Shown in pieces: positions 216 to 50,956 of a stretch of 52,113 nt of DNA. This stretch comes from an uncultured Deinococcales bacterium (lineage in GTDB: Bacteria; Deinococcota; Deinococci; Deinococcales; JAAFIG01). The notes beneath the pieces were generated by a model. The model was not told where the DNA came from, did no database searches, and worked only from the letters and a program-made list of their open reading frames with translations. A program made the position numbers and the translations under genes. The stretch covers positions 1 to 52,113 of the forward strand of contig CAXTKV010000009.1 in NCBI GenBank assembly GCA_964244895.1, written 5' to 3'. How positions within the stretch are numbered: position 1 is the stretch's first letter; every line of letters begins with the position of its first letter.

Positions 216-342
216 GCTCAAATGTTAACGCTCGGAATCTCAACTGCGGGGCATGTCTCGGGAACACCGTCCAGCACGGCCTGCCAAACAATCCTGACCG
301 CTTCACGAGCCAGCTTTACGCGGCTCGCGCTAGACTCATGGC

Positions 343-1332
343 GTGACCGCGACCGCGCTCAGCAAACACCCATACCTGGCCGAACACCCCGGCATCCGCG
401 TCAAGGCGCTCAGCGCCTGTCAGGACGAAGCCTGGACGGGACAGAACCGCAACGTCTGGATCGATATCGAATCGCCGACGCCGGAGCATCTGGTGGAACT
501 CTCGAAATCCTTTGCGTTCAACAAACTGGCGCTCGAGGACGCGCTCGAACTCGGGCACTGGGCGCGCTTCGAGGTCTACCCGCAGCACGTCTTCTTGATC
601 TTTCGCACGCTGGCCGAACCCGAGGACGTGACCGACCGCACCGAGCGCGTGTCGTTCTTCTGGTACCCGGAACTGCAGTCTTTGATCACGATTCGCAACG
701 AACCCGTGACCTACCTGGAAGCCGTCTGGCAGGAGATGAACGCCCGCAAGGATCGAACGCCGGTGGACATCATGTACGCGCTCTTGCAGCGCGGCGCGGA
801 CACGTTTTTTACCTTCGTGGACGAACTCGAGAGCCGCACCGACGATCTCGAGGAGCGGGTCTTTACTGGCAAGCTGATTCCGGGCGCGGCGGCCAGTTTC
901 GCCTCCCAGGTCTTCGAGTTGAAGCACACCATGATTTCAGCCCGCAGGCTCGTGTCCGGCGCCCGAGAAACCGTCGCGCAATTCGCGCGGCACGCCACCA
1001 TGCTCTCGCCGGAGGGCGCGATCCTGTTCCGCGACGTGACCGACCACCTGGCGCGCGTCTACGACGGTCTGGATTCGGCAAGGGACGTGCTCACCAGCCT
1101 CTTGGACGTTCACCTCTCGGTGCAATCGAACCGCATGAACGAGGTCATGAAAACCCTGACGATCGTGTCCACGGTGTTCTTGCCGCTGACCTTCCTGGCG
1201 GGCGTGTGGGGCATGAATTTCAAGTTCATCCCGGAACTCCAGTGGCCGCTCGGGTACCTGTTCGCGTGGAGCAGCTTCGCGCTGGTCGGATTGGGGTTCG
1301 CGTGGTACTTCAAGCAGCGGGGCTGGTGGTGA
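343..1332 (+). CDS. corA: CorA-family Mg2+/Co2+ transporter
   Basis: MNEVMKTLT...LPLTFLAGVWGMNF (GMN motif) followed by two C-terminal TM helices; TAGACT -10 at 331-336. Confidence 0.93.
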   Translation: MTATALSKHPYLAEHPGIRVKALSACQDEAWTGQNRNVWIDIESPTPEHLVELSKSFAFNKLALEDALELGHWARFEVYPQHVFLIFRTLAEPEDVTDRTERVSFFWYPELQSLITIRNEPVTYLEAVWQEMNARKDRTPVDIMYALLQRGADTFFTFVDELESRTDDLEERVFTGKLIPGAAASFASQVFELKHTMISARRLVSGARETVAQFARHATMLSPEGAILFRDVTDHLARVYDGLDSARDVLTSLLDVHLSVQSNRMNEVMKTLTIVSTVFLPLTFLAGVWGMNFKFIPELQWPLGYLFAWSSFALVGLGFAWYFKQRGWW

Positions 1333-1451
1333 ACATCGGCTCGCGATTCTCGAGTCGCGGACGATCGAATGCCGTGCGCTCGGGCGCAGATGCAATAAAA
1401 CTCCGTTCAGCACGGCGTTCTCGAGATCCACAGCCCACGGGAGGTTCATAG

Positions 1452-2273
1452 ATGCCGTTGTACGTTCTGGCTGACATTCACGGTCGCGCGGATCTCCTAG
1501 AAGGCGTGCTGGAAAAAGTTTCCGACGACACGAAGTTCGTGTTCATCGGTGACGCGATTGACCGTGGCCCGCGCAACCGCGACGCGATCCGGATGCTCTC
1601 GCAGCTCGCGGACGAGGGACGGATGGTGCTCTTGAAGGGCAACCACGAAGCCATGATCGAGGACGTGGACGACACCTACGACCGGTACGCCCGAGAGAAG
1701 GACGGCCCGCAAGCCGACGTGCGCCGCACCGATGCCAGGAACGCCCTGGAAAACTGGATCATGAACGGCGCCGATACCGTCATCCCAGAATATGGCGGTT
1801 GGGACAGCGATTTTGACAAGGGCGGCCAATCGGACGCCTTCGGGCCGTGGGGTTTGCCACCTGAACTCCTGGCCTGGGCCGCGCGCTGCCAGCTCGAGTA
1901 CCGCCACGCCACCCCGACCGGAGAAATTCTGTGCGCCCACGCCGCGCCACCCGTCAAGATCAAGGGTTACCGCAGCCTGGAAGAATCGATGGTCTGGGCT
2001 CGCCCCGAACAGGGGCCGTTCCCGCTGCCTGAAGGCGTGAAACTGAGCGTCCACGGTCACACGCCGATTTGCGCCCCGATGCAGTTGGGTCAGAACATCT
2101 TCATCGATCTGGGCGCGTTCTGGACGGGTTGCCTGTGCGCCTACGACCTGGAATCCGAGACGATCACGGTCTTCAAGGGCGAGGGCGCGAACCCCCTGGA
2201 TCGCTTGCCCGTGATCGAACCCGCAGGTGGGATCGAACCCGTGACGCTGCCGTACACGGTCGTCGAACTGTAA
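1452..2273 (+). CDS. Calcineurin-like Ser/Thr protein phosphatase family metallophosphoesterase
   Basis: DIHG, GDAIDRG, GNHE, HA and HGHTP motifs; GGAGG RBS upstream. Confidence 0.88.
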   Translation: MPLYVLADIHGRADLLEGVLEKVSDDTKFVFIGDAIDRGPRNRDAIRMLSQLADEGRMVLLKGNHEAMIEDVDDTYDRYAREKDGPQADVRRTDARNALENWIMNGADTVIPEYGGWDSDFDKGGQSDAFGPWGLPPELLAWAARCQLEYRHATPTGEILCAHAAPPVKIKGYRSLEESMVWARPEQGPFPLPEGVKLSVHGHTPICAPMQLGQNIFIDLGAFWTGCLCAYDLESETITVFKGEGANPLDRLPVIEPAGGIEPVTLPYTVVEL

Positions 2274-2407
2274 GGGTTCTCGAGGATCGCGTTGATGGCG
2301 TCTCGAGGCAGAACGCTTCGGGTTGAGATCAGGCTTGAACGCGATGGACACGGCATTTCTCGAGATGCGCGCATTTCCTGAATCAGCGATCGAGTACGTC
2401 TCAAGGT

Positions 2408-2571
2408 GAGGGCAGGTACCTACCCCTACAAACACCGAGTCTTGTACGGGGTTGCCCTCTCGTGAATAAACCTCCTGCGAAAGTCGATCTTCACGCCCGT
2501 TCCCTACGAGGGCAACCATAAAGGTTGCCCCTACAGGACAGGGTTTGTAGGGTAACCCTCGCGGTTATCCT
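2408..2571. repeat. Cluster of GTAG-type REP palindromes (family B)
   Basis: Units at 2408-2430, 2508-2535 (reverse strand TGTAG-GGGCAACC-tttat-GGTTGCCC) and 2546-2571 (TGTAG-GGTAACC-ctcgc-GGTTATCC). The 21-mer GGGCAACCATAAAGGTTGCCC recurs at 21715-21735. Confidence 0.75.
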
Positions 2572-2618
2572 CACCTCGAGATTCGGGCTCGAAGGCATTC
2601 ACGCGGCATGGATACTCG

Positions 2619-2668
2619 AGAACACCGTCCAGGACGCAAATTTAAACGTGCGTGCTGAACGGTGTTCT
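2619..2668. repeat. Family A palindromic intergenic repeat (doublet)
   Basis: AGAACACCGTCCAGGACGCA - AT-rich spacer - TGCGTGCTGAACGGTGTTCT, between convergent genes. Confidence 0.85.
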
Positions 2669-2669
2669 T

Positions 2670-4511
2670 TTAGCGCGGCACGAACACCAGCGCGTTCGGC
2701 ACGGTTCTGCCCCAACGCCCGGAAAGCATTCCGCCCGAGACGTAGACCGCCGCCGATGACCCCGAATCCAACCTCACCGCGTCCATCAGCCCCGCCGCGA
2801 TCAGGGCTCGAGCGAATTGCTCGGGTGTGGCCTGGTCCATCAACGCGACCGCGTACCGGCCCTGCGCGTCCAGCCCGAACGCGACCTGGCGGGTGGAACG
2901 CCAGATTTCGGCGTTGACATCGAAGCCTTCTTGCTGCGGATTGACGGCGTACTTTCCAGCCCGCACGAGCATCGGGCCCGCTGCCAGCGCGTTGGTGGCG
3001 TTCGCCCAGGCCGGGTCGGACCAGGTCACGCCCAGGTTCGCGACCGTGCCGGGATCGGCGCGGTTCAAGGCATCGAAGGCGGCGGGACTGAAGGTCAGCG
3101 TCACCAATCCGGGCGCGGGCGTGAAGACTTCGGTGCGGCGCTCGAGGATCACGGTGCGGCTGATGCCCTGCGCATCCACCTGCGGCCCCAGCGTCAGGGT
3201 CACGAAACCCGGCGCGCCGACGCTGACGAAGCCGTCTCCAACGAAGGCCGTCAGCCAGCTCGGGTTGGGTTTCGGCCCGAGCGCGTTGATATTGATCGAG
3301 GCGGCATCAGCCAGTCCGACCGTCAAGCGCACGCGCGGCGTGCCGAACAGGACACCGCTCTCGAGCAAGCCGAAACTGGCGCGGTTGCCGCGCGCGTAAC
3401 CCAGCAACGAACCGCCCGCGATGGCCAGGTCGACGCTGGCGCCGGTCGCGCCGTCGAAGTAGCCGCCGTTGACGGCCACGACCGCCCCAGCGCGCCCCGC
3501 GTGTTCCAGTACGGATCTCGTACCGCCCCACGGCGCGGCGACCAGGCTGGGCTTGTAGGCTGCCGGGTCGAGCGTCACCAGGCTCAATTTCAATGGGCCA
3601 TCGCCGCTCGATTCGATCGTCACGCCGGGTGGTGTCGGGTCGGGGGTTGGCGGTGCTTCGTCGGGGGTTTCGGCGTCAATCACCAACCTGTCCGGTTCGA
3701 CCAGCGTGAAGGCTCGAGCGGCGGCGCGCAGCGCGATCTCGATTTCGATCACGGCATCCGGCCCGTCCTGCACGGTTCGTAACCGTGAAACCGATTCCGT
3801 GCCGACGCTGGTGACGCGCGGCGAGATGATCGTGTTCGGCAGCACCACCCGAACGCGTCCGGGTTCCACGGTCGCGTTCGGTAGCGTCGCGCGCCCCAGA
3901 TCGAGCACCAACCGCGAGGCGCGACCCCGGTTGAGCCGGAAGTCCACGACCTGATTCGGGACTTCCGGCGTGTCCGGCAGCGCCTCGATCAGGATGTTCG
4001 CACCGTTCAACCTGAGGTTGAATCCGAGCGCGCTCAGGACGCGCACGGGCAACCAGGCTTGCCCGTTGACGACCACGGGCGCGCCCAGATTCTCCAGCCC
4101 GATCGGCAGGCCGCGCCAGCCGGATTCGGGGTTGTACTCCAGAGCGAACCCGGAGCGGCTGAGGCGCAATCCTTCCCCGAGCACTCGCGTCAGGACCCCG
4201 AAGCGGGACATGGCGCTGACCGGGATGCGTTCGTCGGTCACGTCTCCGGTCGCTCCGCCCAGGTCGGAGCGCGTCTCGAGCGGCAATTGCGAGTTCAGCC
4301 CGACGATCCTGACCGGGGTGGCCTGCGCCACTGCGGAGCAGGCCAGTCCCACCGAGGCCAGGTGCGCGATCAGCCAGACGACGGCGCGGGGACGGGATCG
4401 AAGAGTAAAAGAACCGTATCTGACGGTATTCTTGAGGGTAGAACCGCCTGAAAGCGCGTCAGGCAGCGCATCTTCTCGCTTCAGGTGTGCATTTGCACCA
4501 GATAATCCCAT
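2670..4511 (-). CDS. Secreted phosphodiester glycosidase (NAGPA/DUF2233) family protein with AMIN-like domain; start uncertain
   Basis: VNGGYF, AGPMLV, RQVAFG, LDSGSS and VPNAL motifs; RLVLDL and PDRLVID AMIN-like motifs; hydrophobic signal-like segment near 4310-4385. Confidence 0.78.
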   Translation of the reverse strand: MGLSGANAHLKREDALPDALSGGSTLKNTVRYGSFTLRSRPRAVVWLIAHLASVGLACSAVAQATPVRIVGLNSQLPLETRSDLGGATGDVTDERIPVSAMSRFGVLTRVLGEGLRLSRSGFALEYNPESGWRGLPIGLENLGAPVVVNGQAWLPVRVLSALGFNLRLNGANILIEALPDTPEVPNQVVDFRLNRGRASRLVLDLGRATLPNATVEPGRVRVVLPNTIISPRVTSVGTESVSRLRTVQDGPDAVIEIEIALRAAARAFTLVEPDRLVIDAETPDEAPPTPDPTPPGVTIESSGDGPLKLSLVTLDPAAYKPSLVAAPWGGTRSVLEHAGRAGAVVAVNGGYFDGATGASVDLAIAGGSLLGYARGNRASFGLLESGVLFGTPRVRLTVGLADAASININALGPKPNPSWLTAFVGDGFVSVGAPGFVTLTLGPQVDAQGISRTVILERRTEVFTPAPGLVTLTFSPAAFDALNRADPGTVANLGVTWSDPAWANATNALAAGPMLVRAGKYAVNPQQEGFDVNAEIWRSTRQVAFGLDAQGRYAVALMDQATPEQFARALIAAGLMDAVRLDSGSSAAVYVSGGMLSGRWGRTVPNALVFVPR

Positions 4512-7055: not shown

Positions 7056-7272
7056 GGGTTCAGTCTACGGGGCGGGCATCGGGATGCTTAAACGACCAGA
7101 TTTAATCTCGAGTTCAACCTCGAAAAACACCGTCCAGCACGACCTCTCAAGCCTGCGCGCCGAACGGAGTCCGCGAGACGAGAAGCCCGCGGGAACTGAA
7201 CGGAATGCGTTCGCATCCGAAGCACGACGCCGCCGCGCACGGGTTCAAACGACGGCGGGAGAGGAGAAACCC

Positions 7273-7446: not shown

Positions 7447-7506
7447 GAAGACCGTCCTGGACGCGGATGATTCAATACCAAGAGCGCCGTCCTGGACGGC
7501 GCTCTT
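7447..7506. repeat. Family A repeat: half unit plus collapsed perfect 27-bp palindrome
   Basis: AAGAGCGCCGTCC-T-GGACGGCGCTCTT at 7480-7506, with both arms changed symmetrically relative to the consensus. Confidence 0.8.
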
Positions 7507-8386: not shown

Positions 8387-8437
8387 GGAACACCGTCCAG
8401 CACGGCACTCTTGGAACTGAGTCCGGGACGGTGCTCC
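8387..8437. repeat. Family A repeat (doublet)
   Basis: GGAACACCGTCCAGCACG...GTCCGGGACGGTGCTCC, starting 3 nt after a stop codon. Confidence 0.75.
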
Positions 8438-10480: not shown

Positions 10481-10886
10481 GCGGGCAGTCTACCGCCCAG
10501 CTTTTGCTGTGGCTCGAGTCCAAATCGGTGCGCGCGCAGCCGAGATCCAAGCGCAGACCGTTCTGGACGGCGTTTCCTCGAGTCCAGGAAGTACCGTCTG
10601 GGACGGCCCGTTGATGTTTGGCTCTGGGCTCGCATATGCTCCATTCATGCGGATCGAGTTCGCGCGGTTCGAGGTTCTGGTGCGTTTCACCTATCGCATC
10701 CCAGGCTTGCATTGACCGGGGATCTGTTTGTTATTGTGGCGTTCAGGAATTGGCAAACATCTCGACCAAATTTCGATGAAATGTTTCAACAGCACCGACG
10801 GAACGCGCCCAGCGTTCGACCAGACCGTGACACCTGACCAGGATTGACCCGTTACCGCGTCAATTCTGAGAACCACCGGAGGCCGA

Positions 10887-13666: not shown

Positions 13667-13722
13667 GGCTCGAGCCACGAGGCTGATCGTGGGGGCGGCA
13701 TTTGAGCGCCGCCCCCATCCAT

Positions 13723-13778
13723 GACACCGTCCTGCACGCAAGAGTGAACGCTCGAGAAACACCGTCCTGGACGGTCTC
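13723..13778. repeat. Family A repeat
   Basis: GACACCGTCCTGCACGCA followed by AAACACCGTCCTGGACGGTCTC; preceded by a GC hairpin at 13691-13716. Confidence 0.7.
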
Positions 13779-13802
13779 GCTCGAACCACAGGAGAAAACC
13801 GC

Positions 13803-14288: not shown

Positions 14289-14449
14289 TTCGAGCAGTGC
14301 CCATCGACGTGTAAATCGAGCAGCCCCAACCGACGTTTACTTCTCCGTTGTTCTCGAGAACACCGTCCTAGACGTAGATATTGAACACCATCACAGACGG
14401 TATTTGCATACGACCCTTCAAACTCGAGAAGCGCAACATGGGATGAACA

Positions 14450-15229: not shown

Positions 15230-15239
15230 GGAGGGCGGC

Positions 15240-17710: not shown

Positions 17711-17774
17711 AGGAACACCGTCCAGCACGCACAATCTCGAGTTTCGAGGAACGTCGTCCTGGACGGTGTTCCTT
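17710..17774. repeat. Family A repeat (doublet)
   Basis: AAGGAACACCGTCCAGCACGCA...GTCCTGGACGGTGTTCCTT, abutting a stop codon. Confidence 0.85.
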
Positions 17775-17815: not shown

Positions 17816-19225
17816 ATGAACCAACGAATCGTTACCGCACTCGAGGCCATCGTCGGCGAGGGGCAAACCTTCACCGATCCGAAATCGCTCGAGGTCTTCA
17901 GCAGGGATCATTACTGGTTTTCTCCGGTGCTGACCGCCATGCTGGAATCCAAACGCGCCGAGGTGGTGGTCGCGCCGGGGACGAAAGAGGAGCTGATCGA
18001 GGTCATCCGGCTGGCCGTGCGCGAAAGCGTGCCGCTGGTCGTGCGCGGCGCGGGTACGGGCAATTACGGTCAGGCGGTACCCCTTTCTGGCGGCATCCTG
18101 GCGAACTTGCACCGCTTGAACCGCATCCTCGAGATCGATCCAGTCACGAAAACGGCGCGCGTCGAGGCGGGCGTGCGCATGGGCGCGCTCGAACGCAAAG
18201 CGCGCGAGGTCGGGCTGGAACTGCGGATTTACCCCTCGACCTGGGCGACCTGCACCTTCGGCGGTTTCGTCGGCGGCGGCTTCGGCGGCGTGGGTTCGAT
18301 CCAGTACGGCACGCTCTGGGACGGCAACGTGCTGGGTCTCGAGGTCGTGCCGATCACCGAGGACGCCGAACCCGTGACGCTCGAGGGCTGGGATTGCGCC
18401 GCCATGATTCACGCCTACGGCACAACCGCCGTCATGACCGAACTGCGCGTGCCGCTGGCCGACGCGGTGGCCTGGGAGGAGTGCGCGATTTCATTTCCGA
18501 CGCTGGAAAACGCGATCCGTTTCGCCAGGGACGTGGCGATGGACACAAACGAACGCAAGCGCGAGATCGCCATCAACGAATGGCCGATTCCGAGTTACTT
18601 CGCGCCGCTGGTCAAGGATGGCGGCGTCAGGGATGGCCGCGCCGACGTGCTGCTCGAAATCGAGTCCGGTCGCTCGAGCGCCCTGGGCGAACGCGCCTCG
18701 AAGTACGGGGGGACGCTGGACTGGACGCGGCCTCACGCCGAATACCACGCCGCCGGGTTCAACCTGACTGATTTTGCCTGGAACCACACGACGCTCTGGG
18801 CGCTCAAAACGGAACCGACCATCACCTACCTGCAATCGCGCTTCGAGGCGGATCGCGTACTGGAGCAGGTCGCGGCCCTGAAAGAAAAGTTCGGCGACGA
18901 GATCGTGATCCACCTCGAGTTCATCCGCGAGAACATGCAGGACGGCGGAACCGTGGTGGCCGCCGGGTTGCCGCTGGTGCGTTTCACCACCAAAGAGCGC
19001 CTCTACGAGATGATCAAATTCTGCGAATCCATCGGCGTTCAGATCGCAGACCCGCACCAGTACTATCTGGACGCGGATTCCAGGTGGGCCGGGAACACCG
19101 TGCTGGAGGGCGTCAAACGCTGGAACCCGCACGGCTTATTGAACCCCGGCAAGATTCGCGTCCTGGAGACGGGTCAGGCGTTCGATGCGGGCACGTGGTT
19201 CGAGACGAGAACTCGAGTGCCCTGA
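17816..19225 (+). CDS. FAD-binding oxidoreductase (GlcD/VAO-type FAD_binding_4)
   Basis: RGAGTGNYGQ, VEAGV, TFGGFVGGG and C-terminal NPHGLLNPGK. Confidence 0.9.
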   Translation: MNQRIVTALEAIVGEGQTFTDPKSLEVFSRDHYWFSPVLTAMLESKRAEVVVAPGTKEELIEVIRLAVRESVPLVVRGAGTGNYGQAVPLSGGILANLHRLNRILEIDPVTKTARVEAGVRMGALERKAREVGLELRIYPSTWATCTFGGFVGGGFGGVGSIQYGTLWDGNVLGLEVVPITEDAEPVTLEGWDCAAMIHAYGTTAVMTELRVPLADAVAWEECAISFPTLENAIRFARDVAMDTNERKREIAINEWPIPSYFAPLVKDGGVRDGRADVLLEIESGRSSALGERASKYGGTLDWTRPHAEYHAAGFNLTDFAWNHTTLWALKTEPTITYLQSRFEADRVLEQVAALKEKFGDEIVIHLEFIRENMQDGGTVVAAGLPLVRFTTKERLYEMIKFCESIGVQIADPHQYYLDADSRWAGNTVLEGVKRWNPHGLLNPGKIRVLETGQAFDAGTWFETRTRVP

Positions 19226-19251: not shown

Positions 19252-19317
19252 TTCAGGAGCACCGTCCAGCATGGTGTTCTTGAATCATTGAAGATGTGCG
19301 TCCAGGACGGTGTTCTT
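19252..19317. repeat. Family A repeat
   Basis: GGAGCACCGTCCAGCATGGTGTTCT followed by TGCGTCCAGGACGGTGTTCTT. Confidence 0.8.
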
Positions 19318-21572: not shown

Positions 21573-21620
21573 GAACACCGTCCAGCACGCAGTTCGCTAT
21601 TCGTGTGCTGGACGGTGTTC
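21572..21620. repeat. Family A repeat (doublet)
   Basis: GAACACCGTCCAGCACGC...GTGTGCTGGACGGTGTTC, overlapping the stop codon. Confidence 0.85.
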
Positions 21621-21671
21621 CGTTGCAGGCGGCTGGACGCTCGAGCGACCCGTCGAACACGTCTGGAGGGC

Positions 21672-21737
21672 AGGGTAACCGCAAGGGTTACCCTTACAAA
21701 AGCCTGTTGTGAAGGGGCAACCATAAAGGTTGCCCTC
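21672..21737. repeat. Family B (GTAG-type) REP doublet
   Basis: GGGTAACCgcaagGGTTACCCttaca and GGGCAACCataaaGGTTGCCC; near-identical to the units at 2508-2571. Confidence 0.75.
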
Positions 21738-21789
21738 GCATCAACGCGTTCTGGGGACTGACTTTCGCAAGAGGTTCAATGACCTTTAT

Positions 21790-23290: not shown

Positions 23291-23344
23291 CGAAAATACC
23301 GTCCGGGGCGCATACTCAAAATTGCGTCCTGGACGGTATTCTCG
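23291..23344. repeat. Family A repeat (doublet)
   Basis: AATACCGTCCGGGGCGCA...TGCGTCCTGGACGGTATT. Confidence 0.8.
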
Positions 23345-23709
23345 AGCTGATCTCACGAGCGGAGGCGCGATCGGACGCCTCGCAGATAGACCTCCGGGGT
23401 CGAGCGATGACGTGAACGTGACGGTTCGCTGGTGCGCGAGTTCGTGCACGTTCAAATACGATCGCGAGATCAGATTCAGCCGGGCTCGACTTCGGGAATG
23501 CCACCTCCGACGAAGATGCTCTGGCGCGTCCGAGATCGCGAGCGCTCATCTCGCGTCGCGGAAAATACAGTTTGCGCTTCAGACCTCGACACCAGCCCGC
23601 TACGCGTCAGCCGGGGGTTCTTCCGAGTCTTCACCGCTGACCAAGTTTCTTGCGCTTCCAGTCAAGGGAGTTCGTTCGCGCTCACCCGTTAGACTGCCCT
23701 AGATCATTG

Positions 23710-24772: not shown

Positions 24773-24826
24773 CGGGAACATCGTCCAGGACGCATTCATT
24801 TATTTGCGTCCTGGACGATGTTCCCG
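24773..24826. repeat. Family A repeat, perfect 22-bp inverted arms
   Basis: CGGGAACATCGTCCAGGACGCA-ttcatttatt-TGCGTCCTGGACGATGTTCCCG, filling the gap between convergent genes. Confidence 0.9.
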
Positions 24827-24829
24827 AGG

Positions 24830-25498
24830 CTAAAGCAATCCCTTGCGGAGCGCCTTGACCGCCGCCTGCGTCCTGTCTGACACGCGCAGACGCTCCAGAA
24901 TCTCCTGAACGTGGGTTTTGACGGTTGAGAGGCTGATCTCGAGCGCCTGCGCGATTTCCTTGTTGCCCATGCCGTCCGCGATCAAGCGCAGTACCTCGAG
25001 TTCGCGGGGTGACAGGTTGGTTTCACCATCGCTGGCGGGCGTGATGCGGCCCAGCACCAGGTGCGCGATCTGCGGGTCGAGGTAGGCGCTGCCCAACGCG
25101 GCGGCGCGAATGGCGATCAGCAGGCTCGAGGGGTCGGTGGTCTTGAGGCAGTACGCGTCCGCACCGCTCGCCAGGGCGGCCAGCACCTCCTGCTCGAGTT
25201 GATGCACGGTCAGCATGACGACGCGGGCTTTCGGGTGCGCGGCCTTGAGGCGGCGCGTGGCCTCGATGCCGTCAATGCCGGGCAAGCCGATGTCCATCAC
25301 GACCACGTCGGCGGGGTGTTCCGAGTACAACTCGAGCGCCTCCTCGCCGCTGCGGGCCTCGCCGATGACGCGCAGGCCGGGGTCGCGGTTGATCGCCACG
25401 CGCAGCCCGTCGCGGGTGAAGGCGTGATCTTCGACCAAAAAGACCGTGTTTCCCGAATCATCAATGGCGGGCACCGCGCCGGGCGCGTTCTCGTTCAC
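24830..25498 (-). CDS. NarL/LuxR-family response regulator
   Basis: VEDH, VVVMDIGLPGIDG receiver domain; LSPRELEVL...GNKEIA...TVKTHV LuxR HTH. Confidence 0.93.
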   Translation of the reverse strand: MNENAPGAVPAIDDSGNTVFLVEDHAFTRDGLRVAINRDPGLRVIGEARSGEEALELYSEHPADVVVMDIGLPGIDGIEATRRLKAAHPKARVVMLTVHQLEQEVLAALASGADAYCLKTTDPSSLLIAIRAAALGSAYLDPQIAHLVLGRITPASDGETNLSPRELEVLRLIADGMGNKEIAQALEISLSTVKTHVQEILERLRVSDRTQAAVKALRKGLL

Positions 25499-27048
25499 GC
25501 CGTCCCCAACGGTGTTTTCTGCACAGTAGGGCTGCCCACGGCGGGCAGCTCGAACCAGAAGACGCTGCCGCCGCCCTCGCGCGGGTGGTAGCCGATGCGC
25601 CCACCGTGGGCCTCGATGATGCGCCGGGAAAGGTACAGGCCCAGACCGCTGCCGCCGCCCGCTCGCCCGCCCGCGAAGCGCGTGAACAGCCGCGGTTCGA
25701 GTTCGAGGTTGACGCCCGGCCCGCGATCCGCGACCTCAAGCCTGACCAGGCCGGGTTTCGAGGAACCGTCCGTGCGCTCCAGGTTGACTTCGATCCTCGA
25801 TTGCGGTGGGCTCCAGCGCACGGCGTTCTCCAGCAGGTTCTGGATCACGCGGCGCAGGTCGGGACTGCTACCGCGCACGACAGACGCATCCTGAAGGTTC
25901 CATTCCAGGTTCAAGCCCTTCTCGCGCATCGGATTCTCGAGGCGCACGGCCACGGCTCGGGCCTCGCGCTCGAGGCCGACGGTATCGTCCTGGGTGCGGG
26001 TCTCGCCGCTCTCGTAACGCGCCACCAACAGCAGCGTGTCCGCCAGCGCCAGCAAGTCCTCGTTGGCTTCCATGCCGTGCTCCAGGTTGTGGCGGTACTC
26101 GTCGCTGATCGGGCCGAACGCGCCCTCGAGCGCCAGACGCATGTTGACGCCGTTCGCCACCAATGGCGTGCGCAGGTCGTGGCTGAAGGCGTAGACCAGA
26201 TCGCGGATCACACCGCTGCGGCGTTCGAGTTCCAGGCGGTTGCGCTCGAGGCGCTCGAAGAGTTCCACACGCTCTAACGCGGCACTGAGCGGCGCGATCA
26301 GATTTTCGACGATCACCGTGGCGTCTTTTCTGGGTTCCAAGATTCCCAACAGAAGCGGCGCGCGCCCCGACCACGACAGGCCCGCGATCAGGGCGCGGTT
26401 GGCAATCAGACCGTAATCTGCGGCCTGTTCGGTCAGGATCACCCGTTCCGGCCCCGCACCGACCAACCAGGCGGGCAGCCGCGAACCGATCGGCCAGGCC
26501 GCCAACGACTGCGGCTGCGCGACCCTCGGTGCGGCGAACGACTCGACCCCGCCCGAGGCCAGCACCACCCCTCTGGCCTCGAGCGCCACCGTCAGCGATT
26601 CCGCCACCTTGCTTAAGGCCGCTTCGAGCGTGCGCTCGCCGTTGACCGCCGCCAGCACGCGTTCGATGTCGCGCTCGCGGCGGGCTCGGGCTTCTTCGAG
26701 GCGCAGCGCGCCCAATCGGCTCGAGGTCACGGACAAGGCCGTGGTCATCCAACCGACCAGCACGAACGATGCCGCCAGCAGGCCGCGGTTGGCCAGGCTG
26801 ACCGCATCGAAAGCGCCGTCCGCGCGGGCGTTCAACCAACCCGCGACGGCATCCGTGATGAGCGCCGCGATCACCAGCCCCAGGGTGAAGCGCCTCGAGA
26901 ACACCAGCCCGGATAGCGCAATCGGGATGTTCAACAGGATCGCCACCACCAGCCGTTGCGGGGTCAGCACGTCCGCCGTCACGAACGCCACGAACATCAC
27001 CAGGCAGGCCGTCATGACCGGCGCGGCGAGGGGCGGACGAACGTTCAC
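25495..27048 (-). CDS. Membrane histidine kinase (KdpD C-terminal-half-like)
   Basis: About 4 N-terminal TM helices; H-box SHDLRTPL; NLLENAVR, DRGPG and GSGLGL motifs. Start GTG27048 has TACGAT -10 6 nt upstream. Confidence 0.9.
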   Translation of the reverse strand: MNVRPPLAAPVMTACLVMFVAFVTADVLTPQRLVVAILLNIPIALSGLVFSRRFTLGLVIAALITDAVAGWLNARADGAFDAVSLANRGLLAASFVLVGWMTTALSVTSSRLGALRLEEARARRERDIERVLAAVNGERTLEAALSKVAESLTVALEARGVVLASGGVESFAAPRVAQPQSLAAWPIGSRLPAWLVGAGPERVILTEQAADYGLIANRALIAGLSWSGRAPLLLGILEPRKDATVIVENLIAPLSAALERVELFERLERNRLELERRSGVIRDLVYAFSHDLRTPLVANGVNMRLALEGAFGPISDEYRHNLEHGMEANEDLLALADTLLLVARYESGETRTQDDTVGLEREARAVAVRLENPMREKGLNLEWNLQDASVVRGSSPDLRRVIQNLLENAVRWSPPQSRIEVNLERTDGSSKPGLVRLEVADRGPGVNLELEPRLFTRFAGGRAGGGSGLGLYLSRRIIEAHGGRIGYHPREGGGSVFWFELPAVGSPTVQKTPLGTA

Positions 27049-27602: not shown

Positions 27603-27617
27603 CTGAGGAGGCTCGGC

Positions 27618-31737: not shown

Positions 31738-31747
31738 AGGGATTCAT

Positions 31748-32371: not shown

Positions 32372-32375
32372 ACCG

Positions 32376-32408
32376 AGGCGGGGTACGGATCACCGTATCC
32401 CGCCTTTC
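32376..32408 (+). terminator. Probable terminator after kdpC
   Basis: AGGCGGGGTACGG-atca-CCGTATCCCGCCT, followed by a short pyrimidine tail. Confidence 0.55.
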
Positions 32409-32420
32409 TCTAGGGGAACG

Positions 32421-33970: not shown

Positions 33971-34254
33971 AGAACACCATCCAGCACGCATATTTAATTT
34001 GTGTGCTGGAGCGCGATGGCCCGTCAGGTGCTGTCGTGTGAGCAAGAGGGTGTTCTCGGTTACGCTCGAGTGACTGGTGGATCAGGAATGACCCGAGGCT
34101 CGAGGCGATACCCGATCAGGTTTTTCGCATTCGTGTCGGATCGCGACCCTTCAAGAACACGCGTTGATGTGATCCACGTCGAACCCCACGTGCTCAAAAA
34201 CGAAGAGCACCGTCCCGGACGCCGCCTAAAGAATGCATTGTGAACGGCGTTCTC
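33971..34254. repeat. Two degenerate family A repeats
   Basis: AGAACACCATCCAGCACGCA...TGTGTGCTGGA (33971-34010) and GAGCACCGTCCCGGACGC...GAACGGCGTTCTC (about 34203-34254). Confidence 0.6.
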
Positions 34255-35589: not shown

Positions 35590-35638
35590 GGGCACCGTCC
35601 TGGACGCCTGACCCTTCTCGTGTCCTGGACGGTGTTCC
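35590..35638. repeat. Family A repeat (doublet)
   Basis: GGGCACCGTCCTGGACGC...GTGTCCTGGACGGTGTTCC. Confidence 0.8.
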
Positions 35639-35709: not shown

Positions 35710-36933
35710 TCAGCCGGAGAGCTTACCGATGATCGCGAACATCGGCAGGAACATGCCGGCCACGATCAATCCGACGATCGCGCCCAGGAACACGATCATG
35801 ATCGGCTCGAGGGCGGCGGTGAGCTGATCGACGGCTTCGTCGACCTCTCGCTCGTAATAATCCGCGACCTTGGCGAGCATCGAGTCGAGCGCGCCGGTTT
35901 CCTCGCCGATCGAGATCATGGAGGTCACCATCGGCGGGAAGATGCTGGATGCGGCCATCAGCGGCTGCGAGATCTGCTCGCCCTGCTGGACGGCGTTCTT
36001 GGCGTTGGTCAGGGCATCCTCGATGATCGCGTTGCCCGCCGCGCCCTTGGTGATCTCGAGGGTTTCGATGATGTTCACACCGCTCGCCAGCAGCAGCGAA
36101 AAGGTGCGGCTGAACGATGAGAGCGCAGATTTTTTCAAGAGGTTGCCGAAGACCGGAATCTTGAGCTTGACCGCGTCGATCACGTGCCGCCCCTGGTTGG
36201 TCTTGTAGTACTGCTGGAAGGCAAAATACGCGGCAATCGCAATCACGCCCAGCACCCAACCCATCGTCTGCAGGAAGTTCGAGACCGCGATCAGCGCGCG
36301 CGTGATGAACGGCAAATCCGCACCGAGCTGCGTCAGGATCGTGGCGAACTGCGGCACGATGGTCGTCAACAGGAAGTACGTCACGCCGAGCGCGAAGACC
36401 AGCACGATCACCGGGTAGGTCATGGCGCTTTTGATCTTGCCGCGCAGCTCGAGTTCCTTTTCCTGGAATTGCGCGATGCGGTCCAGCACCGTGTCCAGCG
36501 TGCCCGAGACTTCACCGGCGCGCACCAGGTTCAGGTACAGGCGGTTGAAGACCTTCGGGTGCTTGGCGATGGCATCAGAGAACGGCAGGCCGCCTTCGAC
36601 ATCCGTGCGAATTTCCTTGAGGATTTTCTGGAATCCGGGGTGTTCGACTTGGCGCTGCATGATGGCGAGCGACTGCACCAGCGGCAGACCGGAGTTGATC
36701 ATCGTGGCGAGCTGTCTGGAGAAAACCGCGACCATCTTCAATCCCGGCAGCGCGCTACCGAGGCCCGGAATCTTGATTTCGGCGTTCAGGCCCCTCTTGG
36801 GTTCCTCGATCGAGAGGATGAAGAAGTTCTTCTCGCGCAGCGTCTCGCGCACGATTTTCATCGATTCTGCTTCCATCGTCGAGAGGATCAGCTTGCCGCC
36901 CTGATCTCGAACCTTGTAGGTATAGGTCGCCAT
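35710..36933 (-). CDS. pilC: Type IV pilus platform protein PilC (T2SS F family)
   Basis: FSRQLATMINSGLPL, AGEVSGTLD, IKSAMTYP, IGEETGALD and LEPIMIVFLG motifs. Confidence 0.93.
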   Translation of the reverse strand: MATYTYKVRDQGGKLILSTMEAESMKIVRETLREKNFFILSIEEPKRGLNAEIKIPGLGSALPGLKMVAVFSRQLATMINSGLPLVQSLAIMQRQVEHPGFQKILKEIRTDVEGGLPFSDAIAKHPKVFNRLYLNLVRAGEVSGTLDTVLDRIAQFQEKELELRGKIKSAMTYPVIVLVFALGVTYFLLTTIVPQFATILTQLGADLPFITRALIAVSNFLQTMGWVLGVIAIAAYFAFQQYYKTNQGRHVIDAVKLKIPVFGNLLKKSALSSFSRTFSLLLASGVNIIETLEITKGAAGNAIIEDALTNAKNAVQQGEQISQPLMAASSIFPPMVTSMISIGEETGALDSMLAKVADYYEREVDEAVDQLTAALEPIMIVFLGAIVGLIVAGMFLPMFAIIGKLSG

Positions 36934-36952: not shown

Positions 36953-37708
36953 GTGGATCAAGTCAAGTCCAAAAAAATCACACGGGCTGCGCGCGGCTCG
37001 TCGGGAACGACCAAAACGGTTCTTCATGAAGACTCAGACACGCTCGAGGTGACGGACTCAGACACGCTCGAGGTGACGGACTCAGACACGCTCGGGGTGA
37101 CGGACTCAGATACACCCGAGGTGATGGACTCAGCCGCGCTCGAGGCGTCCCTCGCGCAATCCAGGCCAATTTCCGCTGAAGACCCGCTGCTCGAGACGCT
37201 CTCCGGGGCATTGTTGGCGGCGGGACAACCGATTAAACCCAAAGACATATCAAACTTGCTGGGCGTGCCCACAGAGACCGCGCACAGGCTGATCGAGGTG
37301 CTGCGAAGGCGTTTCAAGGACGCCAACCTGGGTTTCGACATCGAGGCGGTCGCGGGCGGCTTTCGCCTGATCGTCGCGCAGAGCGTCGTCGCGAGGCTCG
37401 AGCCGTTGATGGCTCCGCCGGCCATGCCGGGACTCTCACCGGCCTCGCTCGAGACTTTGGCCATCGTCGCGTACCGCCAGCCGGTCACGCGCGGCGAGAT
37501 CGAACTGATGCGCGGTGCGAGCGCCGGAAGCACCCTGGAAACCCTCCAGGAGCGAGAACTGGTCAAGGTCGTGGGGCGCAGAGACGATGCGGGCCGCCCG
37601 ATGCTGTACGGCACGACGGAGCGCTTCCTGATCGAATTCGGACTGACCGGGCTGAGCGATTTGCCCGTGCTGGACGAGGAAGACTTGGGCGGGTTCCTTC
37701 GCGGGTAG
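36953..37708 (+). CDS. scpB: SMC-Scp complex subunit ScpB with N-terminal repeat extension
   Basis: VAGGFRL, LSPASLETLAIVAYRQPVTRGEIE and GRPMLYGTTERFLIEFGL motifs. Confidence 0.92.
   Translation: MDQVKSKKITRAARGSSGTTKTVLHEDSDTLEVTDSDTLEVTDSDTLGVTDSDTPEVMDSAALEASLAQSRPISAEDPLLETLSGALLAAGQPIKPKDISNLLGVPTETAHRLIEVLRRRFKDANLGFDIEAVAGGFRLIVAQSVVARLEPLMAPPAMPGLSPASLETLAIVAYRQPVTRGEIELMRGASAGSTLETLQERELVKVVGRRDDAGRPMLYGTTERFLIEFGLTGLSDLPVLDEEDLGGFLRG
37031..37146 (+). repeat. 24-bp coding tandem repeat (about 4.8 copies; DSDTLEVT)
   Basis: GACTCAGACACGCTCGAGGTGACG is exact twice, then degenerates. Confidence 0.9.
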
Positions 37709-37733
37709 CGCGGGGCGGTCAGAGGTCAGGGGA

Positions 37734-37779
37734 AACACCGTCTGGTACGCAACTCTAGGAACGCGTACCAGACGGTGTT
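37734..37779. repeat. Family A repeat variant, perfect 17-bp arms
   Basis: AACACCGTCTGGTACGC...GCGTACCAGACGGTGTT. Confidence 0.85.
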
Positions 37780-37791
37780 CTCGAGCGCGGG

Positions 37792-38289
37792 GTGGACGTG
37801 GGGAATCTCAGGCTCGGAGTGATTTCGGATACGCACGGGCTGGTCAGGCCGGAATTGATGGCGTTACTGGAGGGCGCAGACGCGATCCTGCACGCGGGCG
37901 ACGTGGGGGACGAGGAGGTCATCTGGATTCTGGAAACCATCGCGCCAGTTCACGCGGTCGGCGGCAACGTGGATGGCCGCGAGTACCCCGCGAGGCTCGA
38001 GTTGGCGTTCCTGGGCTGGAATTTCGGCATCGAACACGGCCATTTAACGAATCCCAGGGATCGGGTCGGGGCGCTCGTGGGAACGTTCCCAGAGGCAGAT
38101 TTCGTGATTTACGGCCACACGCACCAGCCCAGAATGGATCGGATCGGGCGCGCGACCGCGATCAATCCGGGTTCAGCGGGCGCGAAACGCTTCCGGCAGC
38201 CCGTCACGGCGGGGATGCTCGAGTTGACGCAAACAGATTTCCGTTTTTACCTGCGCGATCTCGAGGCGAGCCGGGAATACCGTCCTTGA
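37792..38289 (+). CDS. YfcE/MJ0936-family metallophosphoesterase
   Basis: ISDTHG, HAGD, GNVD, HGH, GHTH and NPGS motifs. Confidence 0.9.
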   Translation: MDVGNLRLGVISDTHGLVRPELMALLEGADAILHAGDVGDEEVIWILETIAPVHAVGGNVDGREYPARLELAFLGWNFGIEHGHLTNPRDRVGALVGTFPEADFVIYGHTHQPRMDRIGRATAINPGSAGAKRFRQPVTAGMLELTQTDFRFYLRDLEASREYRP

Positions 38290-38325
38290 CGGTCTTTTTT
38301 GGACGCCAAAACGCGTTCAGGACGC

Positions 38326-39169: not shown

Positions 39170-39216
39170 GAACACCGTCCTGGACGCACTTTAAACGCGC
39201 GTCCAGGACGGTGTTC
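39170..39216. repeat. Family A repeat, perfect 18-bp arms
   Basis: GAACACCGTCCTGGACGC...GCGTCCAGGACGGTGTTC. Confidence 0.9.
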
Positions 39217-39851: not shown

Positions 39852-40004
39852 GCCACAAACGATACGCAGCCGAGATGAACCTGTCCGGTAATAGTTCACG
39901 CTTTTGGAACAGCACGAGGAAAACGATTGGATTCGTGCCGGACGAAGTTTTGTCCGCAAGGCAAATCCGCCACCACGAAGCGGCGGAATGGAACCATCGA
40001 ATCC

Positions 40005-40616: not shown

Positions 40617-40824
40617 AAGTCCATTTGAAGCGAAAATTCTTCAGATCAGCTTAATGGCGTTTGGTAAACCGTTGGCTCGCACAACGGGACACGCTTCGCC
40701 GTGCGCACCAAAGAACTCCGTCCTGGACGGTGTTTTTACTGCTTTCAGCTCGAGGCACGAACGCGTCGCGTCCGGCTCATTTCGCGGTTCTTAGTGAGCG
40801 GCTGTGCTTCGGCTGGGTCGATCT

Positions 40825-44664: not shown

Positions 44665-44724
44665 AGAGCACCGTCCTGCACGCGTTTTCCTCAGATCAAG
44701 CAATCACGTCCTGGGCGGTCTTCT
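44665..44724. repeat. Family A repeat (degenerate doublet)
   Basis: AGAGCACCGTCCTGCACGC...CGTCCTGGGCGGTCTTCT, immediately after the acpS stop. Confidence 0.7.
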
Positions 44725-45316: not shown

Positions 45317-45366
45317 AGAGCACCGTCCCACACGCATTTTTCTGGGCGCGTGCGGGACGGTGCTCT
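45317..45366. repeat. Family A repeat (doublet)
   Basis: AGAGCACCGTCCCACACGC...GCGTGCGGGACGGTGCTCT. Confidence 0.85.
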
Positions 45367-47096: not shown

Positions 47097-47155
47097 AAAC
47101 ACCGTCCAGCACGCACTTCTCGAGGTGCAAAAACTCGCGTCCGGGACGGTGTTCT
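47097..47155. repeat. Family A repeat (doublet)
   Basis: AAACACCGTCCAGCACGC...GCGTCCGGGACGGTGTTCT, between convergent genes. Confidence 0.85.
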
Positions 47156-49451: not shown

Positions 49452-49506
49452 TAAGCGCGCACCTCGGGGAAAGGCGCGGGCCGCAAGCCTCGAGCCGCAA
49501 GGCAGG

Positions 49507-49680
49507 AAAGACCGCTCAGGACGCTATTCTCGAGCCTGCAGAAAATACCGTGTGGGACGGTGCATTGCGTAGGGGCGAACACGAGACTTGCCCCGCCCAG
49601 AACCATGCTAGAGCCTACAGACTCCTGAAACGCGTCCTGGGGCTTCCCTCTGACTGCTGACCTCTGACCCCTGACTGCCC
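49507..49680. repeat. Composite repeat patch between ftsE and ftsX
   Basis: Degenerate family A copy (49507-49562), GTAGGGGC...GCCCC REP (49569-49594) and CTGACYN heptamer run (about 49650-49678). Confidence 0.6.
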
Positions 49681-49695
49681 TTGCCGCGCCCGCCC

Positions 49696-50379
49696 TCATA
49701 TCGCGTAGCCGCCGTTCGGGTCGTCGCGCACCAGCTTGCCCTTACGGAGCGTCAGGGTGCGGCGGCGCATGCGTTCGACGATCTCGCGCGAGTGGGTGGC
49801 GACCACGATGGTCGTGCCTTTCAGGTTGACCTCGTTCAGCAACTCCATGATTTCCCAACTCACGTCCGGGTCGAGGTTGCCGGTCGGTTCGTCGGCCAGC
49901 AGCAAGGGCGGGTTGGTCACGACCGCGCGGGCGATGCTGACGCGCTGGCGTTCGCCCAGTGAAAGCTGGATCGGGTACGCGAGCTTCTTGTGGGCGAGGC
50001 CCACCAGCCGCAGCACGCGACTGATGCGCTCCTCCCATTCTTTGGGCGGGACTTCGGTGATTCGCAGCGCGAAGGCGATGTTCTCGAAGACGCTGATGTT
50101 GTCCAGCAGTTGTTGATCCTGAAAGACCATTCCGATGCGGCGGCGGTGGTACGCGATGCGGTTGCCGCGAAATTTGGCCAGCGCGTCACCGGCCACGTAG
50201 ACCTGGCCGCGCGTGGGTTTGACGCGCTTGATGATCAGATTTAAAAAGCTCGATTTGCCCGCGCCGGAATGGCCAGTCAGGTACACGAACTCGCCCTTCT
50301 TGATGGAGAGGTTGAGTTCCTCCAGGGCCAGCGTCCGTGTCACGGGATACTCGAGTGTGACGCGGTGAAACTCAATCAT
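49696..50379 (-). CDS. ftsE: Cell division ATP-binding protein FtsE
   Basis: GHSGAGKSS, RRRIGMVFQD and LLADEPTGNLDP motifs; upstream of ftsX. Confidence 0.94.
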   Translation of the reverse strand: MIEFHRVTLEYPVTRTLALEELNLSIKKGEFVYLTGHSGAGKSSFLNLIIKRVKPTRGQVYVAGDALAKFRGNRIAYHRRRIGMVFQDQQLLDNISVFENIAFALRITEVPPKEWEERISRVLRLVGLAHKKLAYPIQLSLGERQRVSIARAVVTNPPLLLADEPTGNLDPDVSWEIMELLNEVNLKGTTIVVATHSREIVERMRRRTLTLRKGKLVRDDPNGGYAI

Positions 50380-50709
50380 GATGCACGCATCTTAACGTGC
50401 AAAAAGTGAAAACCGTGCGCGAGAGTCCGTCACCGACGATAAAGCCGCGTCAATCGCACGAGGAAGACCGTCCTGCACGGTGATTGAAACTGCTCGAGCA
50501 ACGCGTCTCGGACGGTGCCGTTGACGCTACAGTCAACGCGGCCAGCGAGCGGATCGAGAAACGAACCGGCGTACCTGTTCGTGCGTATGTCCAATTAAGC
50601 GCGACGGTCTATAGCGATGCGCGCGATAAACAGAAAGAATTGTGTAAGAAACGCTGTTTTATCCTTCGCCCATGAAAGACCGCTCGAAGCACCAAAAAGG
50701 AGGCACATC

Positions 50710-50892
50710 ATGATTCCACCCCGCTGGGGACGCCGTGCCGTCCTCGAAGTGCTCGAAGCGTCCCGTCAGGCCAGACGCGAGTGGCACACCCGCATTCCGG
50801 GGTCTTCGCGCAAGCGCGCCCCGAGCGTGCAGCAGTCCAGGCATGTTCAGGTTCGCCGACCCGCGATGTTCGATTCCAACGCGGCGGACTGA
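50710..50892 (+). CDS. Possible 60-aa basic small protein
   Basis: Strong AAGGAGG RBS 6 nt upstream; MIPPRWGRRAVLEVLEASRQARREWH...; no recognised homology. Confidence 0.35.
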   Translation: MIPPRWGRRAVLEVLEASRQARREWHTRIPGSSRKRAPSVQQSRHVQVRRPAMFDSNAAD

Positions 50893-50896
50893 ACCG

Positions 50897-50956
50897 GAAG
50901 ACCGTCTCAGACGCACATCGAGTGGCATCAAGAACACCGTCCTGGACGGTGTTCTT
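50897..50956. repeat. Family A repeat: half unit plus collapsed perfect 27-bp palindrome
   Basis: AAGAACACCGTCC-T-GGACGGTGTTCTT at 50930-50956. Confidence 0.88.

Follow-up and report, generated by a model that had tools for sequence, protein, structure and literature searches.

Most intergenic gaps in the stretch of DNA analysed here, 52,113 nt of an uncultured Deinococcales bacterium (the window), contain a palindromic repeat, which raises the question of what kind of element it is and what keeps it there. An earlier note had interpreted the repeat as a REP/REPIN- or MITE-like element that is selected for hairpin structure or homogenised between its arms. Our analysis favours a different reading, to which we assign a probability of roughly 65%: judged from sequence data, the repeat probably serves as the docking site for a candidate symmetric protein that bends DNA and fills the role of IHF in Deinococcales, and is not a mobile hairpin.

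The repeat unit is a mirror-symmetric dyad of 21-23 bp with the pattern AA-N3-CGT-N5-ACG-N3-TT. A weight matrix of this unit identified 59 dyad centres in the window, compared with a mean of 2.1 (maximum 8) in 30 dinucleotide shuffles, none of which contained a pair. All 27 loci listed in the earlier note are real, each start being 9-16 nt away from a dyad centre, and the four compensatory arm examples quoted there are present in the sequence. Every arm of a pair is in turn a dyad, centred on CGT-N5-ACG. Instead of arms separated by spacers of about 10-20 nt, all 19 full pairs in the window have centre-to-centre distances of 24-26 or 35-36 bp. The shorter distance is found at 2620..2667 (centres 2631/2656, 25 bp), 8388..8436 (8399/8425, 26 bp), 21573..21620 (21584/21609, 25 bp, beginning at a stop codon), 23294..23341 (23305/23330, 25 bp, divergent gap), 24776..24823 (24787/24812, 25 bp, arms fully complementary), 35590..35637 (35601/35626, 25 bp), 37733..37780 (37744/37769, 25 bp), 39170..39216 (39181/39205, 24 bp) and 45318..45365 (45329/45354, 25 bp, preceding recN). 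It also occurs in three 25-bp pairs with a second dyad of 5 bits, which is weak (7125..7172), 11.9 bits (14358..14405) and 10.6 bits (34205..34252). Pairs with 35 bp between the centres are located at 7447..7504 (7458/7493), 13722..13779 (13733/13768), 44666..44723 (44677/44712), 47097..47154 (47108/47143, following recN), 50463..50520 (50474/50509) and 50897..50954 (50908/50943), the last two in divergent gaps, and pairs with 36 bp at 10553..10611 (10564/10600), 17713..17771 (17724/17760), 19257..19315 (19268/19304) and 49507..49565 (49518/49554, ftsE/ftsX gap). Lone dyads lie at 262..284 in a divergent gap, at 1398..1420 and 40713..40735 (both symmetric), at 4409..4431 and at 33972..33994, where a decayed partner at 25 bp can be recognised by eye. 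The matrix added a lone dyad at 39928..39950, a single dyad at a gene junction (25495..25517) and a symmetric one spanning a stop codon (38275..38297), all three absent from the earlier list. Two further single dyads are intragenic, at 19093..19115 (18.6 bits) and within pilC at 35976..35998 (19.7 bits). Most of the presumed collapsed singlets (7480, 13759, 17745, 50931) turned out to be one half of a 35/36-bp pair and are not free-standing.

The family is not confined to the window. Genome-wide we counted 5,611 centres at 3,625 loci, and these approximately 5,600 dyads occupy 73% of all gaps of at least 60 nt. The weight matrix matched 7,187 times in the genome and 235 times in the reversed genome, and a matrix-free check gave 4,208 intergenic occurrences of CGT-N5-ACG versus 319-408 for three controls, with unchanged spacing peaks. 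Identity between copies is 87% in the arms and 36% in the mid-spacer. Only 4-7% of the strong sites lie inside genes and about 95% are extragenic. According to the gene calls made in this analysis, the pairs are mostly found in tandem or convergent gaps close to stop codons, 204 of the 1,723 main-class pairs are located in divergent gaps, and the 25-bp pairs prefer convergent gaps (248 of 962). As the earlier note had stated, the repeat belongs to an untagged extragenic palindrome family: sequence logos contain no unpaired terminal GTAG or CGTC tag, and the CGTC of the dyad is internal and paired with GACG. Rfam gave no match within the window, and we found no description of the repeat in the literature; since these searches were aimed at the repeat and not at a CRISPR-leader motif, the latter may be in print.

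The spacing of the pairs falls mostly into two classes one DNA turn apart, as 1,764 of 2,005 neighbouring centres are separated by 25/26 or 35/36 bp. A further 110 have distances of 30/31 or 40-42 bp and seven are closer than 24 bp. The spacer sequence drifts, whereas its length does not. In an 81%-identical relative, an orthologous pair retained its 25-bp spacing despite a diverged spacer. In a relative with about 92% identity the 35-bp pair at 13722..13779 shows no internal indel, although indels are present in its flanks, and the 25-bp pair at 14358..14405 has a distance of 26 bp.

A comparison with relatives revealed where this unit comes from. None of 363 other Deinococcota showed the paired form, its pattern giving at most 8 matches there compared with 963 in this genome, and samples of 38-420 kb from seven relatives contained no abundant dyad family. 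A scan of contigs listed at least 13 single matches and a viral scan 35, none of them with a pair. Nevertheless, the single dyad is present across three families: family totals summed by hand for the flanked dyad pattern were 60 versus 17, 60 versus 15 and 46 versus 6 for the reversed control in three families, 3 versus 3 in a fourth, and 1,872 versus 1 in this genome. At least 18 genomes of the Deinococcus family and nine family relatives carry a dyad ahead of their first CRISPR repeat. The dyad centre is positioned 22-24 nt before the first repeat in 32 of 50 CRISPR-repeat-linked matches from 125 Deinococcaceae and in 13 of 15 from 18 family relatives, or 43 of 65 in total after dropping two without an element-like core; these are counts by hand, the interval covers three of 27 allowed lengths, and the leader side was checked for three arrays. 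At gyrB, 16 of 30 loci have an ungapped dyad 11-12 nt upstream of a -35-like box, with about one expected, where the box was called by eye, the pattern was written after seeing these loci and kin are not independent. The gyrB dyad also occurs in this genome, in which the excess of -35-like boxes downstream of the dyads is only weak (at +18 and +19, 42 each of 3,672, background about 18). Among 20 hand-picked sites in relatives, nine lie 13-20 nt behind a tRNA and five adjoin integrase genes. Thus, the single dyad is ancestral, with few copies at fixed spots in relatives, and was amplified about 300-fold, mostly as pairs, in one lineage. An origin by deletion between arms, as had been proposed for the singlets, found no support.

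Selection for a hairpin was not supported as the main force. Compensation between the arms is real in the 25-bp pairs, where 900 of 3,493 deviations (26%) are compensated versus 14.5% with shuffled arms, and this speaks to some extent against our reading; the excess is small in 26-bp pairs (20.8% versus 15.9%) and disappears in 35-bp pairs (19.5% versus 18.9%). The earlier note was right about some arm homogenisation, which is seen in the 25-bp pairs. Against hairpin selection as the main force speak, besides the 35-bp pairs, inner spacer pairing below chance and the lack of a G-U bias: on the transcribed strand, G-T versus A-C counts were 265 versus 289 and 206 versus 216 for 25-bp pairs, and 181 versus 219 and 154 versus 221 for 35-bp pairs. 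That the pairs serve as terminators or mRNA stabilisers is very unlikely in our view. They fold at about -26 kcal/mol and the 25-bp pairs favour convergent gaps. In addition, the dyads behind the tRNAs of relatives fold into perfect hairpins that have a T run and outer stems with compensatory changes; at these places the dyad thus works as a terminator, too. However, the folding energy is equal on both strands, U-tracts show no bias (2.88 versus 2.73 T or A, n=223), hundreds of pairs are located in divergent gaps, the CRISPR-leader and gyrB copies are not hairpins, and a hairpin does not need length steps of 10 bp. The pairs in divergent gaps and the absence of a G-U bias suggest that the dyad acts at the DNA level and not at the RNA level.

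If the family were a decayed hairpin element of REPIN or MITE type that a now lost Y1 or DDE transposase had spread long ago, this would be in line with the extragenic location, the starts close to stop codons, the compensation in 25-bp pairs and some intragenic pairs that are in-frame insertions within linkers. REPIN spacers, too, are described as conserving length over sequence (PMC3116915). The comparison of orthologous gaps did reveal added DNA, as gaps in other genera are shorter by a median of 149 nt (21 comparisons). This growth exceeds the 48-58 nt of a pair and also counts against our own reading. The target-site duplication of an insertion was not seen: among 720 combinations of boundary and length, the top-scoring one gave 10 against 3.5 expected in 813 copies. 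Furthermore, no identical copies exist among 818, no transposase is encoded between facing lone sites in eight cases, and the genome contains neither a PF01797 (Y1) match nor a tblastn remnant detectable with the Y1 proteins of relatives. The enzyme could have been missed because the assembly is 91% complete; however, 16 of 18 relatives possess Y1, and at the 12 such loci no pair is present. The RAYT or MITE engine assumed before thus found no support. The missing tag, the absent compensation in 35-bp pairs and the fixed jobs of the single dyad in relatives also argue against such an element, and the genome's separate 150-bp family with a GTAG tag has a very different appearance. It is further weakened by the gene pheT, in which a 36-bp pair lies in a stretch that is ungapped versus six relatives from four genera and contains amino-acid replacements; this pair arose in place by substitution, without insertion. 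Likewise, 20 of 32 strong coding sites with a homologue are located in ungapped stretches, and strong coding sites number 33 versus 6.9 in shuffles and none in two control genomes. The coding excess is partly general, as genomes without the family show 1.14-1.19-fold (bare core) and 1.6-1.8-fold (core class) values, so that the bare-core excess is in part background. Taken together, we consider a decayed mobile element unlikely.

We give an equally low weight to the idea that the dyad is the operator for a common helix-turn-helix regulator (of XRE/DdrO, TetR or CRP type), with a regulon that expanded out of control and no role in bending. Its 17-bp YGT-N5-ACR geometry is shared with the RDRM as described in PMC8533742, the place upstream of the gyrB -35-like box is fixed, and the operator at a TetR gene of this genome shares the half-site, with a spacer one base shorter. 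Yet the TetR spacing occurs twice versus 251 times for the spacing of the dyad, the genome has a separate canonical RDRM set of 22 sites, gyrB promoters carry RDRM and dyad side by side, and a regulator has no obvious use at the fixed CRISPR-leader place or behind tRNAs. That the repeat is a DNA uptake signal built up through transformation drive, as in Neisseria (DUS) or Haemophilus (USS), is highly improbable. The genome has ComEC and pilC, pairs are absent from several island-like contigs, and sites are written into proteins: PheT contains one such pair, and NTV.D was counted 9 versus 2 times in 551 aligned orthologues, with a tripeptide enrichment that is not significant across the proteome. 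However, uptake sequences are characterised in PMC2817400 as non-palindromic and 35-65% in genes, a single DUS is sufficient according to PMC2397512, and a dyad shared across families cannot mark self.

In the reading as a docking site for a DNA-bending protein, a putative homodimer, for which a member of the HU/IHF family is our first guess, would occupy each dyad. It may kink the helix at two CG steps, 9 bp apart like the kinks of IHF, and clamp the flanking A/T positions at +/-9-10. With a distance of about 2.4 or 3.4 turns, two dimers would sit on roughly opposite faces and could bend gene ends into a zig-zag that shapes the nucleoid and absorbs supercoils made by transcription. The sites would have spread via added gap DNA and point changes and be held by selection on binding. 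A wrap of 35 bp as in IHF would overlap in the 25/26-bp pairs, which speaks against an IHF-style fit. Three HU-like genes were spotted by eye among the ORFs of this genome. As binders we dropped a 159-aa basic-tailed protein (missing in 11 of 11 genomes of a family having the site, no fold match), a 70-aa paralogue family (family-wide), a DdrO paralogue (none among 25 HTH_3 matches) and the TetR proteins (23 genes screened). CTCGAG was rejected as a cause because its density is similar in relatives without the family (4.3 versus 4.8-6.7 per kb), and an attC identity because of a mismatch in the end consensus and because housekeeping genes neighbour the sites.

It is conceivable, although we hold this only tentatively, that Deinococcales own a sequence-specific symmetric IHF counterpart that acts in spacer acquisition by CRISPR, with integrases and at the gyrase promoter, and that in one genus its site became a genome-wide architectural code, with thousands of phased pairs still being written into gaps and essential genes and a chromosome folded by design at most gene boundaries. 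The dyad offers a precise DNA site for a candidate host factor in a model genus, and as the same motif precedes the first CRISPR repeat in Deinococcus-family genomes, its role in aiming spacer integration is testable in culturable Deinococcus strains. Furthermore, the 300-fold amplification is a natural experiment on how a protein site can give rise to abundant extragenic palindromes in the absence of a transposase, which is a long-standing question in the field of REP-like repeats.

Among known systems, the RDRM/DdrO system of Deinococcus shares the 17-bp dyad, the YGT-N5-ACR core and the presence at gyrB. The RDRM has T-rich outer bases (TT...AA) and about 20-40 sites at repair genes, whereas the dyad has (C/G)A...T(G/C) with 1% T at -7 in the matrix, and the two motifs occur together in gyrB promoters as well as in this genome. 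The DUS of Neisseria and the USS of Pasteurellaceae also reach thousands of copies, are written into coding sequence and are scarce in recently acquired DNA, but the dyad family is palindromic, largely extragenic, arranged in fixed-distance pairs and shared across families. Within the tests on this genome, the family lacks the target-site duplications, near-identical copies and cognate transposon of MITEs. REP/BIME and REPIN-RAYT systems are similar in that extragenic palindromes lie close to stop codons in hundreds to thousands of copies, with inverted doublets and length-constrained spacers, as far as described in PMC3116915 and PMC3733652; REPs, too, are mostly located in tandem or convergent gaps. 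The dyad family is set apart from them by the lack of the unpaired terminal tag before a 5-13-bp stem that defines REPs in PMC3733652, and by the absence of the G-T pairs that REP stems tolerate as RNA or ssDNA hairpins. It also differs in that a RAYT is absent, hairpin compensation is weak or lacking, the spacing has two classes one turn apart, many pairs occur in divergent gaps and the intragenic origin is in place. REP/BIME elements include the BIME-1/RIP class, which binds IHF. To our knowledge, no case is known in which an IHF-type site has multiplied into thousands of pairs with a fixed spacing, and the E. coli IHF consensus is asymmetric, whereas the site described here is a dyad with a GC-rich core. 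The likeness to IHF lies in position and build: IHF introduces two kinks 9 bp apart in a 35-bp wrap, with conserved steps and A/T flanks (PMC8421141), and its site in the E. coli type I-E leader is reported at most 35 bp away from the first of the CRISPR repeats (PMC5224486). The dyad similarly places one site near the first repeat, has conserved steps 9 bp apart with A/T flanks, and occurs close to integrase junctions as well as upstream of a promoter, just as IHF of E. coli serves the CRISPR leader, lambda att and promoters.

The palindromic repeats of the window represent more than a REP family: they are a real, Deinococcales-wide DNA signal with IHF-like placement, and one lineage has multiplied it about 300-fold, as phased pairs. 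All 27 loci that the earlier note had proposed proved to be genuine, with a dyad centre lying 9-16 nt from each proposed start, and the window as a whole holds 59 dyad centres compared to a mean of 2.1 in 30 shuffled sequences. A genome-wide count, which the same note had suggested, extended the family far beyond the window. In the 5.12-Mb genome of this bacterium (G000, assembly 91% complete, with the window as its contig C9) a weight matrix yielded 7,187 matches versus 235 on the reversed genome, corresponding to 5,611 centres at 3,625 loci, with two sites at 1,902 of them. The commonest 11-mer of the genome, GAACACCGTCC, is present in 1,324 copies; the reversed control has a single one, and each of 60 relatives has between 0 and 18. 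According to gene calls made within this analysis, 2,257 of the 3,105 gaps of at least 60 nt contain a site, pairs start shortly 3' of stop codons, and divergent gaps hold 204 of 1,723 pairs.

Each site is a dyad of the form AA-N3-CGT-N5-ACG-N3-TT with two invariant CG steps 9 bp apart, flanked on the outer side almost always by GTGTT and on the inner side by GTGTT or CRWWT. The centres of neighbouring dyads are mainly 25 bp (833 pairs), 26 bp (146), 35 bp (570) or 36 bp (215) apart, less often 30/31 bp (59) or 40-42 bp (51), and only 7 of 2,005 neighbouring dyads are closer than 24 bp. A matrix-free count gave identical distance peaks, and none with three control spacings. With a helical repeat of 10.5 bp, the main spacings equal ~2.4 and ~3.4 turns and the minor ones ~2.9 and ~3.9. 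Along with the near lack of pairs tighter than a footprint, these values suggest that two dimers sit on roughly opposite sides of the DNA, which would form a zig-zag. Between copies the arms are 87% identical and the mid-spacer 36%, and no identical copies were detected among 818 25-bp pairs of G000. The hexamer CTCGAG, which is strongly over-represented throughout the window and in family f1 in a HIP1-like manner (G000 has 4.3 per kb, and samples of relatives have 4.8-6.7), ends 473 of 3,788 outer flanks.

The earlier note considered a REP/REPIN- or MITE-like element whose arms change together. This co-change holds for 25-bp pairs, in which arm compensation reached 900/3,493 (26%) versus 14.5% with shuffled arms, and to a lesser extent for 26-bp pairs (20.8% versus 15.9%), but not for 35-bp pairs (19.5% versus 18.9%). 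Pairing within the inner spacer is below chance, no U-tract bias was found at the pairs, and on the transcribed strand G-T is no commoner than A-C. As the symmetry excess of short pairs is equally large in divergent and convergent gaps, we infer that arm-to-arm copying fits better than selection on RNA. Target duplications were looked for at the pairs and none was detected, and no Y1 domain (the RAYT transposase of REP/REPIN elements) was found in the 91% complete assembly of G000. The domain is present in 16 of 18 relatives, and the pair is absent from all 12 of their Y1 loci inspected. The appearance of a REPIN-like element in G000 is exemplified by a separate GTAG-tagged family of ~150 bp, with two tagged hairpins within long inverted ends, for which no Y1 gene was found; it has 53 near-full copies, of which 42 lie no more than about 110 nt from a dyad, and occurs in the window at 2470-2581 and 21652-21778. 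A further GTAG REP adjoins the pair on metagenome contig L072 and is missing from G000 at that site.

In a count across relatives, which the earlier note had also proposed, the paired pattern reached 963 occurrences in G000 and no more than 8 in 363 other Deinococcota. The orthologous pair on L072 (81% identical) is spaced identically but differs in its spacer sequence. On a ~92%-identical contig a 35-bp pair is indel-free with several indels in its flanks and a second pair is one base longer. In other genera, the site is missing from the orthologous gaps, which are shorter by a median of 149 nt (21 comparisons), in contrast to 12 nt for gaps in which no pair is present in G000 (42 comparisons); therefore, DNA was added. 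Beside this addition, sites also arise in place: in G000, a region of pheT that aligns with six relatives without gaps contains a 36-bp pair, of which one dyad was made by three synonymous changes and the second involved amino-acid replacements. In-gene pairs number 43 in G000 compared to 10-16 in conservative synonymous shuffles; many lie within linkers and some are insertions. Strong coding sites amount to 33 in G000 versus 6.9 in shuffles and to 0 in both genomes without the dyad family, in whose genes the bare core is 1.14-1.19-fold enriched.

Counted on both strands and summed by hand, the flanked pattern is commoner than its reversed control in G000 (1,872 versus 1), in its own family f1 (60 versus 17), in the probably Deinococcus-like f3 (60 versus 15), in the probably Truepera-like f2 (46 versus 6) and more weakly in a further family, f4 (9 versus 2), with no excess in the probably Thermus-like f5 (3 versus 3). 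A stricter search gave a single copy upstream of gyrB in one relative. The core precedes gyrB at 16 of 30 loci outside G000 (f2 6/7, f1 10/18, f4 0/5), where ~1 match is expected from the core density in the relative G006, bearing in mind that the pattern was drawn up after viewing those loci and that related genomes are not independent. These cores align gap-free 11-12 nt before a -35-like box and adjoin the RDRM, the DdrO site of Deinococcus, yet are distinct from it; G000 has the same arrangement. Among 20 sites of relatives chosen by hand, in overlapping classes, nine form a hairpin with T run 13-20 nt behind a tRNA, which makes terminator use a likely second role, five adjoin an integrase, five precede genes, two lie in CRISPR leaders and one is coding. 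A directed search of 125 f3 genomes, counted by hand, gave 50 matches with a CRISPR-type repeat at their end. Of these, 32 had lengths of 64-66, which are 3 of the 27 allowed lengths (~6 expected), and 30 of the 32, spread over 18 genomes, have an element-like core. In 18 f1 relatives 13 of 15 such matches have these lengths (9 genomes). The dyad centre precedes the repeat by 22-24 nt, and the leader side was confirmed for three arrays (L290, L298 and that of G000).

DdrO of G000 (contig C77, 2266-2655) comes with a canonical RDRM set of 22 sites genome-wide, preceding genes that resemble ruvB, uvrB, uvrC, uvrD, gyrA, gyrB and ddrA (named by eye). A possible nucleoid protein of 159 aa (L133:1094-1573, G000 contig C258) has a basic tail resembling an AT-hook, and its codon bias is ribosomal-like; it occurs in 12 of 18 family genomes, has distant relatives in Deinococcus and gave no match in Pfam and fold searches. 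In five family genomes, a ~70-aa protein (L138:1043-1252, G000 contig C170) is represented by 6-14 paralogues each. Directly before the start of a TetR gene (G000 contig C119, 1721-2296) lies a perfect 16-bp operator with the half-site of the element and a spacer one base shorter. A divergent promoter of G006 (L046:10254-10300) contains two related dyads, 26 bp from each other and with a longer spacer, and in the relative G056 two dyads lie 52 bp apart in non-coding DNA (L292), one with four identical occurrences in that genome. The window further contains two tandem cytosine-deaminase-like paralogues (15204-17710), kdpABC together with a KdpD that has no kinase part and, separately, a kinase-regulator pair (23650-33956), a 24-bp repeat, about 6 tandem units long, within the 5' portion of the scpB reading frame (37007-37150) and a Thermus-type PilC match. 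This match, homologues labelled Deinococcales and the DdrO gene with its RDRM sites assign the genome to an uncultured family of Deinococcales.

A literature search on the repeat, not on the CRISPR-leader motif, found no published description of it. The dyad family differs in tag, transposase and G-T pattern from REPs and REPINs as characterized in PMC3733652 and PMC3116915, in target duplication from MITEs, in palindrome and coding share from DNA uptake sequences (PMC2817400, PMC2397512) and in its outer bases from the RDRM (PMC8533742). Deinococcus and Thermus are not mentioned in the main text of PMC3733652, three other Deinococcota are listed in PMC12306157, and the DdrI site is described as CRP-type and even-spaced (PMC11253593). 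A putative symmetric DNA-bending protein would recognise the dyad, and an HU/IHF-family homodimer would be our first guess; three HU-like genes of G000 were spotted by eye. IHF, which in E. coli also acts at att sites and promoters, is to our knowledge absent from Deinococcota. In the E. coli leader, the IHF site is no more than 35 bp away from the first CRISPR repeat (PMC5224486), and the protein wraps 35 bp of DNA, with two proline-induced kinks separated by 9 bp (PMC8421141). A wrap of 35 bp is compatible with the 35/36 class and incompatible with the 25/26 class. Like IHF in E. coli, the dyad is found at a fixed distance in CRISPR leaders, in an upstream promoter position and at integrase junctions, and although by sequence it is not an IHF site, it appears to work like one.
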